Sequence record: PZ379598.1
DNA length: 40,118 nucleotides
Reading direction: 5' to 3' (one strand)
DNA from: a phage
The notes beneath the pieces were generated by a model, which saw only the letters and a list, made by a program, of their open reading frames with translations, was not told where the DNA came from and made no database searches. Positions 17,069 through 19,339 of this stretch are shown here, piece by piece. The stretch's first letter is position 1. Each line of letters opens with the position of its first letter. The position numbers were made by a program, and so were the translations under genes.

Positions 17069-17296
17069 TTAAATCATACTCATTAGGACGTATCCCTCAG
17101 CGATGTCACCAACGTCAGCAATGTGGACAACCTTACGTGCTACCTGTTGTCCAGTATACCCGTTGTCCCACTCATTCAGGATAAGCCAGTCGCCAACCTT
17201 AAAGTCCCGGTCGTTAAGTCTCAGCTCTGCTGTCTTTAGACCTAGTTGTACCGGACCAAAGTGCTGGCGGTGAATCTTCAGGTTGTGACTAGCCAT
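17069..17296 (-). CDS. DUF3850-like (ASCH/PUA-like fold) small protein
   Basis: 75 aa; pattern H.LKI...F..V..G.KT.E.R.NDR.F.VGD.L.L.EWD..YTG characteristic of DUF3850 proteins as I recall them. The start overlaps the gp11 stop by 1 nt; T7 has no gene here. Confidence 0.7.
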   Translation of the reverse strand: MASHNLKIHRQHFGPVQLGLKTAELRLNDRDFKVGDWLILNEWDNGYTGQQVARKVVHIADVGDIAEGYVLMSMI

Positions 17297-17862: not shown

Positions 17863-17977
17863 AGGTTTACTCCTTAACGGTCATAGGCGCTAGACGGTGA
17901 GCTGGACAGCAGGTACGCCCAGAATAAGACGAATAGTGCTAACCCTGTGTAAATAAGGACCATAGTCCCTCCTTAAG

Positions 17978-18016
17978 CAAAAAACCCCTCAAGCACCCGA
18001 AGGCACCCAAGGGGTT
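17978..18016 (-). terminator. Tphi-like intrinsic terminator (for phage RNAP and host)
   Basis: Minus strand AACCCCTTGGGTGCC-TTCG-GGTGCTTGAGGGGTT followed by TTTTTG: about 15-bp stem with G-U pairs, UUCG tetraloop and U-tract; very similar to recalled T7 Tphi and in the same position after gene 10. Confidence 0.85.
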
Positions 18017-18020
18017 TCAA

Positions 18021-19339
18021 TTAGTTTGTGAAAGATACGTTGAAGGAACGCACAGGCGTACCGTCATACCCAACAATCACCAGACCTTCCACGCCAGAGG
18101 TGGCCTTGAAGTAGAGACTGTTGGTTCTACGGGAGTAGCTAACACCATCAGGCGTAGTCACCTCAAGCAGCGACCAATCGGTCACATCTGAAAGCTCAGG
18201 GAAGTCAACCTTCAGGCTGGTTCCCACCGTAGAACTATACGTCTCTAAGGTAGGACCCTCTGTAGAGAGGGCCTTAAAGGTCGTTAACCCGCTTTCGCCG
18301 CTGTGAAAACCAGTGCGCCTGCTGCTTCTGGACGCAGACCACCGTGACCCATAGCGTACTTACCAACAATCAGGTCGCCCTGAGCATCGACGTCACGGTC
18401 ACGTTCCAGCGCCAAGTCACGCAGCTTAACAGTACCTACAGCAGAACGGTGAGAGAACAGGCCCACAACGTTGTCCAGAGCAACTTTAACATCACCAGTA
18501 GCAGTAGCAGTAGCTGGGAAGGCGTGCTTCTGACCAGTCGCAATAGTGATACCATCGGCACCACGAGTTTCCCCAGCACCACCCTGAGTCAAGTGTGGAA
18601 CTTCAACAACCACGAAGCCCATTACGTTACGGATGTTACCAGTCTCTGGGTCAATCAGCGCAGCATAGTTAGCAGCGTTCGGCATCAGAGCCGCGAGGAT
18701 TGCAGAGTAGTTGTCCGGCGTGGTGTAGAAGTAACGGTCGCCAGCAGGAACGTAGTTGGATGTCAGCTTCGCACGAGCAATGGTCAGTTGACCGATGATT
18801 GCTTCACCCAGCTTAGCCGGAGTGTTCAGGTCTGCTTTAGTACCAACTTCCAGCACAGACGCTTTGCCAAGACCAGCGATGTTTTCATCAGATGCAGCCG
18901 GTAGGTTACACAGAATAGCCATCTCAGCCAGTACCGCACCATCGGCAGCGATAGCCAGAGCTTCGCCCAACTGGTTGGAGTACTCGCCAGCCACGTCATA
19001 GTGGTTCATCGCGTCTTCAATGTCGAAAATCATCACATCGGCAGTCAGCAGACCATCAATGGTAATCACTTTCTCGGTATGTTTGATACCTTTACGCTTA
19101 TCGGACAGTCGCTCACCCGGAGCCAGATACACACCAGAGGTGCGACCCATGACCGGGAACTGAGCAGACTTACCGTTCTGAATGGTACGGACAATATGCT
19201 TGTCAGCAGTTACAGAGCGGCGAGTGAATGCTGTCAGGACTTCGCCAGCAAAGACCTTCAGGAACAACGCCAGAGCGTCGGAACCAGATTTGCCTTTACC
19301 TTGGTCTGTACCAACTTTCTGACCCGGAACGTTTGCCAT
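18021..19339 (-). CDS. gp10B: Minor capsid protein 10B produced by -1 programmed frameshift
   Basis: The 10A frame contains G GTT TTC (plus strand 18305-18311) 8 codons before its stop, the same heptamer I recall for the T7 gene 10 shift site. The -1 frame is open from there to 18021, adding about 95 aa and joining the 68-aa track ORF 18021..18227. Confidence 0.7.
18284..19339 (-). CDS. gp10A: Major capsid protein (T7 gp10A-like)
   Basis: 351 aa; strong identity with recalled T7 gp10A (LALFLKVF.GEVLTAF, KSAQFPV.GRT, HTEKVITIDGLLTADV, NAANYAALIDPE.G.IRNVMGF, RSAVGTVKLRDLALER, KYAMGHGGLRPEAAGA). Confidence 0.95.
   Translation of the reverse strand: MANVPGQKVGTDQGKGKSGSDALALFLKVFAGEVLTAFTRRSVTADKHIVRTIQNGKSAQFPVMGRTSGVYLAPGERLSDKRKGIKHTEKVITIDGLLTADVMIFDIEDAMNHYDVAGEYSNQLGEALAIAADGAVLAEMAILCNLPAASDENIAGLGKASVLEVGTKADLNTPAKLGEAIIGQLTIARAKLTSNYVPAGDRYFYTTPDNYSAILAALMPNAANYAALIDPETGNIRNVMGFVVVEVPHLTQGGAGETRGADGITIATGQKHAFPATATATGDVKVALDNVVGLFSHRSAVGTVKLRDLALERDRDVDAQGDLIVGKYAMGHGGLRPEAAGALVFTAAKAG

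Follow-up and report, generated by a model that had tools for sequence, protein, structure and literature searches.

Gene 10 of phage T7, which Condron, Atkins and Gesteland are said to have described in 1991 as a case of programmed -1 frameshifting, yields the capsid protein 10A and a longer variant, 10B. Frameshifting in T7 has an efficiency of about 10%, and T7 display exploits the external C-terminus, in that C-terminal fusions to 10B are displayed. The T7 shift has been established at the heptamer G GUU UUC and reportedly needs a CCCC tract in a terminator more than 200 nucleotides (nt) downstream (PMC5009743); the details of T7 used throughout are taken from this 2016 review and from the T7 sequence. 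In the Kluyvera phage Kvp1, mass spectrometry on a band from virions has proven a -1 shift at TTTTCA that produces gp10B (PMC2579914). Gene 10b of phage K1F has been described as a product of -1 frameshifting by which 44 triplets are added, and fusing green fluorescent protein to the end of this frame gave a stable fluorescent phage (PMC6277420). Here, we describe the corresponding locus in the phage sequence record PZ379598.1, namely the 3' end of its major capsid gene and the -1 frame extension that overlaps and follows it. The whole stretch that was analysed, 40,118 nucleotides, is referred to as the window; it is approximately the complete genome of a K1F-like podophage of the T7 group (genus Kayfunavirus), in reverse orientation with the late genes on the minus strand, indicated below by (-).

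The reading that we prefer, with a probability of roughly 0.86, is that a -1 ribosomal frameshift at G GUU UUC makes a 10B protein, that is, the capsid protein with an immunoglobulin (Ig)-like tail. It is position, frame, and conservation among relatives that make the slip site significant. The mechanism is known from T7; the cargo here is an uncharacterised Ig-like domain, which is systematically mis-annotated in databases.

The capsid gene and its -1 reading frame

Gene 10A lies at 18284..19339 (-) in the zero frame of the open reading frame (ORF) list and encodes the major capsid protein of 351 amino acids (aa) and 36.5 kDa, which matches the Pfam family PF21703 (Gp10A-like; expect value, E, 7.5e-104). 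The capsid region is 99% identical to that of the Escherichia phages vB_EcoP-U8, 101136BS1, and LM33_P1, and the solved chains nearest to the window capsid protein are 9vvq, followed by 7y23 and T7 10A (2xvr). The ORF ends in ...GCA CTG GTT TTC ACA GCG GCG AAA GCG GGT TAA, the stop codon being located at 18286..18284 (-). The slip site G GUU UUC at 18305..18311 (-) is identical to that of T7 gene 10 and is followed by a conserved A at 18304; its GUU and UUC are zero-frame codons 344-345. A prediction made earlier from the letters of the window (hereafter the original prediction) had placed G GTT TTC eight codons before the capsid stop, and indeed the GTT of the heptamer at 18311..18305 (-) is the eighth sense codon before the 10A stop; it had also named the same heptamer for T7 gene 10, which the T7 sequence and PMC5009743 bear out as G GTT TTC A.

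Read in the -1 frame from 18305 (-), the window gives 94 sense codons (HSGESGLTTFKALSTEGPTLETYSSTVGTSLKVDFPELSDVTDWSLLEVTTPDGVSYSRRTNSLYFKATSGVEGLVIVGYDGTPVRSFNVSFTN; HSGESG...NVSFTN) closed by a TAA at 18023..18021, in good agreement with the predicted opening of about 95 codons, and 18021-18311 is exactly the span from the heptamer through the -1 stop. This extension ORF (18021..18305, (-)) is delineated by its translation, by frame-specific constraint, by tblastn matches and by PHROG 7473, and in the window the -1 frame is already open 73 nt ahead of the 10A stop. The predicted 10B would join residues 1-345 of 10A to the extension, giving 439 aa and 46.1 kDa, a net gain of 88 aa over 10A, and the predicted trans-frame junction peptide is YAMGHGGLRPEAAGALVFHSGESGLTTFK. 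The original prediction had compared about 95 aa here with about 53 aa in T7; the first figure holds for the 94-aa tail, whereas the T7 tail has 56 aa and 53 is the net gain of T7, to be set against the net 88 here.

We infer from the sequence that the slip in this phage occurs at G GUU UUC. Most ribosomes on the late capsid messenger RNA would finish gene 10 in frame and make 10A, whereas at G GUU UUC a minority would move back by one nucleotide, the Phe-tRNA shifting its pairing from UUC to UUU and the Val-tRNA contributing little or nothing. A slip dominated by Phe-tRNA is favoured on the basis of codon-anticodon rules and the variability of position 1, because Val-tRNA would re-pair poorly on GGU, and worse on the AGU or CGU of some relatives. 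The slipped ribosomes would then read HSGESG..., pass the 10A stop, and terminate after 94 codons just before the terminator. Because residues 1-345 are common to 10A and 10B, 10B would be expected to co-assemble with 10A into the HK97-fold shell, its tail forming a 20-residue flexible linker and an Ig-like beta-sandwich of about 74 residues on the capsid exterior.

Conservation across related loci and coding constraint

The comparison covered 17 annotated deposited phages, T3, Kp9, and 58 IMG/VR loci, spanning T7, K1F, Kayfunavirus, Przondovirus, Pektosvirus, Ningirsuvirus, and IMG/VR contigs, and the capsid gene could be located in 74 of these 77 loci. In all 74, GTT TTC stands in the capsid frame 5-8 codons ahead of the capsid stop, and the extension is in the -1 frame and continuously open from the slip site (74/74 for each). 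The -1 frame opens at least 31 nt ahead of the capsid stop and stays open for 43-99 codons beyond it, while the +1 frame is closed within 3-13 codons. Extension lengths differ by lineage (88, 91, 93, 94, 96, or 103 aa), as does the spacing from slip to stop (5, 7, or 8 codons), yet the -1 frame relation holds throughout, which supports the frameshift reading. The base preceding GTTTTC is G in 68 loci, C in three, and A in two, one locus has GGTTTTCG instead, and GTTTTC is followed by A in 73 of 74; the conserved core is GTTTTCA. Codon usage at the site is restricted as well: among 70 unique capsid genes, the slip-site Val is the only one of 15 invariant-Val columns to use a single codon (GTT), and the Phe next to it is always TTC, whereas single-codon columns make up 18 of the 179 columns with an invariant residue.

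These loci also bear on whether a real change of frame might be reached by another route, either through RNA polymerase slippage that adds a U in the U4 run or through a ribosomal shift elsewhere, for example at the 10A stop. An inserted U would yield the same protein as a -1 slip, so protein data cannot separate polymerase from ribosome slippage; the U4 run, however, is far shorter than the tracts on which T7-type or bacterial polymerases are known to slip appreciably, which weighs against this possibility. A shift at another site would find room in the window, where the -1 frame is open over the 73 nt noted above and a hairpin lies about 10 nt 3' of the 10A stop. Across relatives, however, the permissible stretch narrows to about 31 nt, because in some of them only the last 31 nt ahead of the capsid stop are open in the -1 frame, leaving a short interval for the shift, and GTTTTC is the only invariant slippery element there. 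The codons adjacent to the stop vary (GGT, GCG, GCC, GCT, CCT, or GAG before TAA) with no conserved re-pairing, and the shifts of T7 and Kvp1 have been mapped to Phe codons (PMC2579914; PMC5009743). We therefore consider these other routes to be highly improbable.

Some loci depart from the common pattern. The natural variant L028 (IMGVR_UViG_2974604219_000001, ~1495-1780) has lost the C-terminal half of the extension together with the terminator, the N-terminal half being joined in frame to the small hydrophobic ORF that follows the terminator in the window, and L070 (IMGVR_UViG_3300045988_007064) combines GGTTTTCG at the slip site with a 3'-truncated extension. These truncations suggest that the extension domain is dispensable, or else they are assembly errors. 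In addition, many Przondovirus capsid genes end in TAA GCG TAA, with two in-frame stops two codons apart (columns 17-25 of alignment A4); in other Przondovirus-type loci the first stop is replaced by a sense codon, so that 10A differs in length by two residues and the -1 frame is unaffected.

Constraint on the encoded protein was estimated by the Nei-Gojobori method as the ratio of nonsynonymous to synonymous variation (pN/pS) for 17 unique Kayfunavirus-type and 44 unique Przondovirus-type extension sequences. In the -1 frame this ratio is 0.27 and 0.29, respectively, as against 1.3-1.6 in the other two frames, and for residues 9-27, which follow the 10A stop and precede the first candidate start, it is 0.26 and 0.35. 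Judged from this pattern of variation, purifying selection acts on the extension in the -1 frame alone, and it acts on the stretch without a start as well. Within the Przondovirus group, the seven codons directly after the slip site show no synonymous variation, and equally long stretches of this kind occur elsewhere in the extension. A seven-codon run without synonymous variation is also seen at extension codons ~62-72 (~18090..18122; RRTNSLYFK) in both the Kayfunavirus-type and the Przondovirus-type sets, and possible causes are recent recombination, an RNA element, or very strong constraint on codons.

This constraint is hard to reconcile with the way in which the extension has been entered in databases, that is, as an independent minor capsid or decoration gene of about 68 aa that would be translated unfused, from its own GTG start at 18227 or by termination-reinitiation. 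Nearly all GenBank records and gene callers do give separate coding sequences, 68-87 aa long and carrying the name 'hypothetical' or 'minor capsid protein', and other phages do have small decoration proteins with an Ig-like fold, such as that of N4. The 68-aa GTG-initiated ORF (18021..18227, (-)), annotated as 'hypothetical protein' in relatives, is the C-terminal part of the extension. The starts chosen by gene callers and annotators are not conserved but vary from genome to genome, giving products of 68, 73, 75, 76, 83, 84, or 87 aa. The -1 ORF of the window has no ATG, and the Shine-Dalgarno duplex at its first GTG (18227) is negligible, at -2.9 kcal/mol as against -7 to -13.5 for genuine late genes. 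Furthermore, the 20-27 codons that precede these starts are under purifying selection in the same frame and are alignable across genera, and an independent gene would require neither a constant -1 frame nor openness back to the slip site. An unfused gene thus appears quite improbable. Because constraint precedes every start, initiation signals are missing, and starts are not conserved, we judge the separate 'hypothetical' or 'minor capsid' gene annotation to be an artefact of ORF calling.

The same practice extends to all of the records that were inspected, in each of which the extension is either annotated as a separate small ORF or left unannotated. In a collection of 5.8 billion proteins, none of the best 120 proteins was a fused product of capsid length, and the extension domain occurs there as small ORFs only, mostly on contigs of about 40 kb. 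Labels of the tail ORF across deposited records include 'hypothetical', 'minor capsid protein', and 'major head protein'. In vB_EcoP-U8 (L001, 1562-2611) it is the 10A ORF itself that is labelled 'minor capsid protein 10B', in IME278 this ORF is labelled 'minor capsid protein', and in Kp9, the source of capsid structure 7Y23, the tail ORF is unannotated.

One could also regard the -1 ORF as a relic that is not meaningfully expressed, with the heptamer a coincidence. The number of heptamer occurrences is within chance expectation, the truncated variants L028 and L070 exist in nature, and K1F, of the same genus, does without the Ig-like domain. A relic would nevertheless be difficult to square with strong frame-specific purifying selection over all 94 codons in two diverged groups, with invariant slip-site codons, with a confidently folded domain in the AlphaFold model, and with the occurrence of this domain in 455 phage records and in at least four genera among the loci inspected. 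Such a relic is, in our view, extremely improbable.

Returning to a frameshift at G GUU UUC, several points weigh against it. In 40 kb, chance alone would give 1.1 copies of the octamer GGTTTTCA, and the window has one; long -1 ORFs that run beyond stop codons are frequent in this genome, because neighbouring genes abut, so that the pattern at the slip site is not significant by itself. The count of 74/74 overstates the number of independent observations, because many of the sampled genomes are closely related, and the dispensability suggested by L028 and L070 counts in the same direction. G GUU UUC is not a canonical X XXY YYZ heptamer, its first three positions being G GU and position 1 varying among G, C, and A in relatives. 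The original prediction had proposed a search of the downstream sequence for a stem-loop or pseudoknot; folding gave no stable structure that starts at the canonical distance of 5-9 nt past the heptamer, no Rfam family matched, and the nearest well-formed hairpin starts 31 nt downstream. In the cryo-electron microscopy models of relatives (9vvq; Kp9, 7y23), only a chain of 10A length is present. Finally, literature searches turned up no specific report of this extension as a frameshift product and no junction peptide or protein data for phages with this type of extension.

The tail domain, RNA signals, and neighbouring ORFs

The first 20 residues of the extension (HSGESGLTTFKALSTEGPTL; 18246..18305, (-)), which span the 10A stop codon, are predicted to be disordered or flexible, with an AlphaFold predicted local distance difference test score (pLDDT) of 47-50. 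Residues 21-94 (18024..18245, (-)), which carry the conserved motif VTDWSxLEV...RRTNxLYFK, fold in a confident AlphaFold model as an Ig-like, seven-stranded beta-sandwich, and the N4 decoration protein is among the fold matches of this domain. At the sequence level, the extension matches PHROG 7473 ('unknown function') with E 6.8e-37, residues 15-94 aligning with profile positions 2-82 of 82, and it has no Pfam family at E<=0.1, including Big_2, I-set, and FN3. The 455 phage records in which tblastn finds the domain are mainly those of Klebsiella, Escherichia, Salmonella, Enterobacter, and Pectobacterium phages.

Because the C-terminus of 10A/10B is external in T7, the Ig-like domain should, by analogy, sit outside the capsid, and we infer that it may have a weak glycan- or surface-binding role. 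No solved structure includes the tail, as 9vvq, 7y23 (Kp9), and the T7 entries all end at 10A length; a tail that is both flexible and present in a minority of subunits is expected to be missing from cryo-electron microscopy models, but these structures lend the tail no support.

The RNA hairpin GGCCCUCU-CUAC-AGAGGGUC at 18254..18273 (-), obtained by folding, begins 31 nt downstream of the heptamer, or about 10 nt beyond the 10A stop. A hairpin occupies the homologous position, just 3' of the 10A stop and 19-31 nt 3' of the slip site, in every lineage with the Ig-like tail. That of Przondovirus (L004-L073; alignment A4, columns 27-69) has 18 bp with 98.9% pairing and lies about 19 nt 3' of the heptamer; it contains two compensatory pairs, G-C/A-U and U-A/C-G, with wobble intermediates, the changes altering the encoded amino acids while pairing is kept, and none of 500 shuffles reached the observed score. 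In a third subtype the hairpin at this position has a UUCG loop. These hairpins are lineage-specific in sequence and common in position. A single consensus RNA structure over all extension types was rejected, as RNAalifold returned only three pairs on the mixed alignment, and conservation of synonymous sites at the hairpin is not uniquely raised.

Since its spacing is too long, the hairpin is not a canonical stimulator, and the window hairpin is better described, from its predicted fold, as a candidate modulator element. A bolder and rather unlikely proposal is that the hairpin is a non-canonical regulator of the 10A:10B ratio and that, in parallel, the Ig-like domain of 10B is an adhesin for capsule or mucus glycans. 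Such a regulator could act on terminating or queued ribosomes, or together with the distal terminator. If true, this role of the hairpin might account for the long-unexplained long-range requirement of T7, and the adhesin would matter to phages whose hosts are encapsulated (K1 E. coli, Klebsiella, and Pectobacterium).

The late-transcript terminator, a T-phi-like hairpin with a U run at 17979..18014 (-), starts 6 nt after the -1 stop. It contains a CCCC tract at 18014..18011, like the one that T7 reportedly requires, and aligns with the T-phi terminators of K1F and T7, an alignment from which a role in frameshifting cannot be read.

Between this terminator and gene 11 lies a 29-aa hydrophobic ORF (MVLIYTGLALFVLFWAYLLSSSPSSAYDR; 17874..17963, (-)) with a strong Shine-Dalgarno sequence (AAGGAGGG), which has no Pfam match and is annotated as hypothetical in some relatives. 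Further along, between the tail tubular genes 11 and 12, a 75-aa ORF (17069..17296, (-)) matches the PUA-like DUF3850/ASCH family (Pfam E 1.9e-19), and it is an unexpected insert in the structural module, T7 having none at this position.

Significance and comparison with known systems

As to the mechanism, nothing is added beyond what is known from T7 except for the candidate conserved hairpin. Recognising the extension as a capsid frameshift tail corrects the annotation of the PHROG 7473 records, which come from 455 genomes as compared with 160 for the T7-type tail. Between slip site and terminator, the sequence behaves like an exchangeable cargo cassette that comes in at least three forms, namely the short tail of T7 and K1F, the Big_2 domain of T3, and the Ig-like domain described here. 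In addition, K1F-like phages and Klebsiella therapy phages gain a natural and probably dispensable position for surface display.

The window and T7 share a homologous capsid gene, an identical G GUU UUC A placed 5-8 codons before the stop, a -1 tail that ends just before a T-phi terminator with the core AACCCCUUGGG...CUUGAGGGGUUUUUUG, and no canonical structure next to the slip site. The distance from slip site to terminator is about 290 nt in the window and about 200 nt in T7. The T7 tail of 56 aa is rich in Ala and Glu and is not a folded Ig-like domain, in contrast to the 94-aa tail of the window, which is unrelated in sequence and modelled as a beta-sandwich. Homology of the extension to the T7 10B tail was rejected, given the different families (PHROG 7473 versus 12582) and the replacement of the K1F tail between identical flanks. 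The proposal of a 10B-type capsid variant in the original prediction is thus well founded with regard to the frameshift mechanism, for which there is comparative support, but does not carry over to the cargo. The short tail of T7 and K1F belongs to PHROG 12582 ('head protein'), and a query with the T7 tail finds its 160 phage records, led by Escherichia and Yersinia phages.

The type species of Kayfunavirus, K1F, shows no nucleotide difference from the window between the capsid 3' end and the end of GGTTTTCA; past the differing tails, identity resumes at the last codon and stop (AAC TAA) and extends through the terminator. Between these same boundaries K1F (L007, 1140-1380) has a T7-type tail of 48 aa, 43 of them past the stop, whereas the window has its 94-aa Ig-like cassette. 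On this sequence comparison, the capsid cargo looks exchangeable by recombination, with the slip site and the terminator as its apparent boundaries.

Kvp1 has the TTTTCA core motif that is conserved in the window group. According to the published description, on which the comparison relies, the unique C-terminal residues of its gp10B are 327-372, which suggests a much shorter tail (PMC2579914).

The 10B proteins of T3 and phiYeO3-12 resemble the one proposed here in that they acquire a C-terminal Ig-like (Big_2) domain of about 85-90 aa through -1 shifting late in gene 10 (PMC5009743). The T3 slip site differs, as it lacks GTTTTC and is reported at Lys codons (probably C CCA AAG), while that of the window is a Phe site. 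The domains themselves differ as well, the T3 domain falling in PHROG 215 with Ig families of tail proteins and the window tail in PHROG 7473 only, with no Big_2; the Ig-like domain of the window has no detectable sequence similarity to that of T3, and homology to the T3 10B tail was rejected (BLASTP E 0.48). Overall, as modelled, the window tail takes its place among the Ig-like domains that phages carry on structural proteins, including T3 10B, the C-terminal domain of lambda gpV, and Hoc-type proteins, and it does so by fold rather than by curated sequence family.

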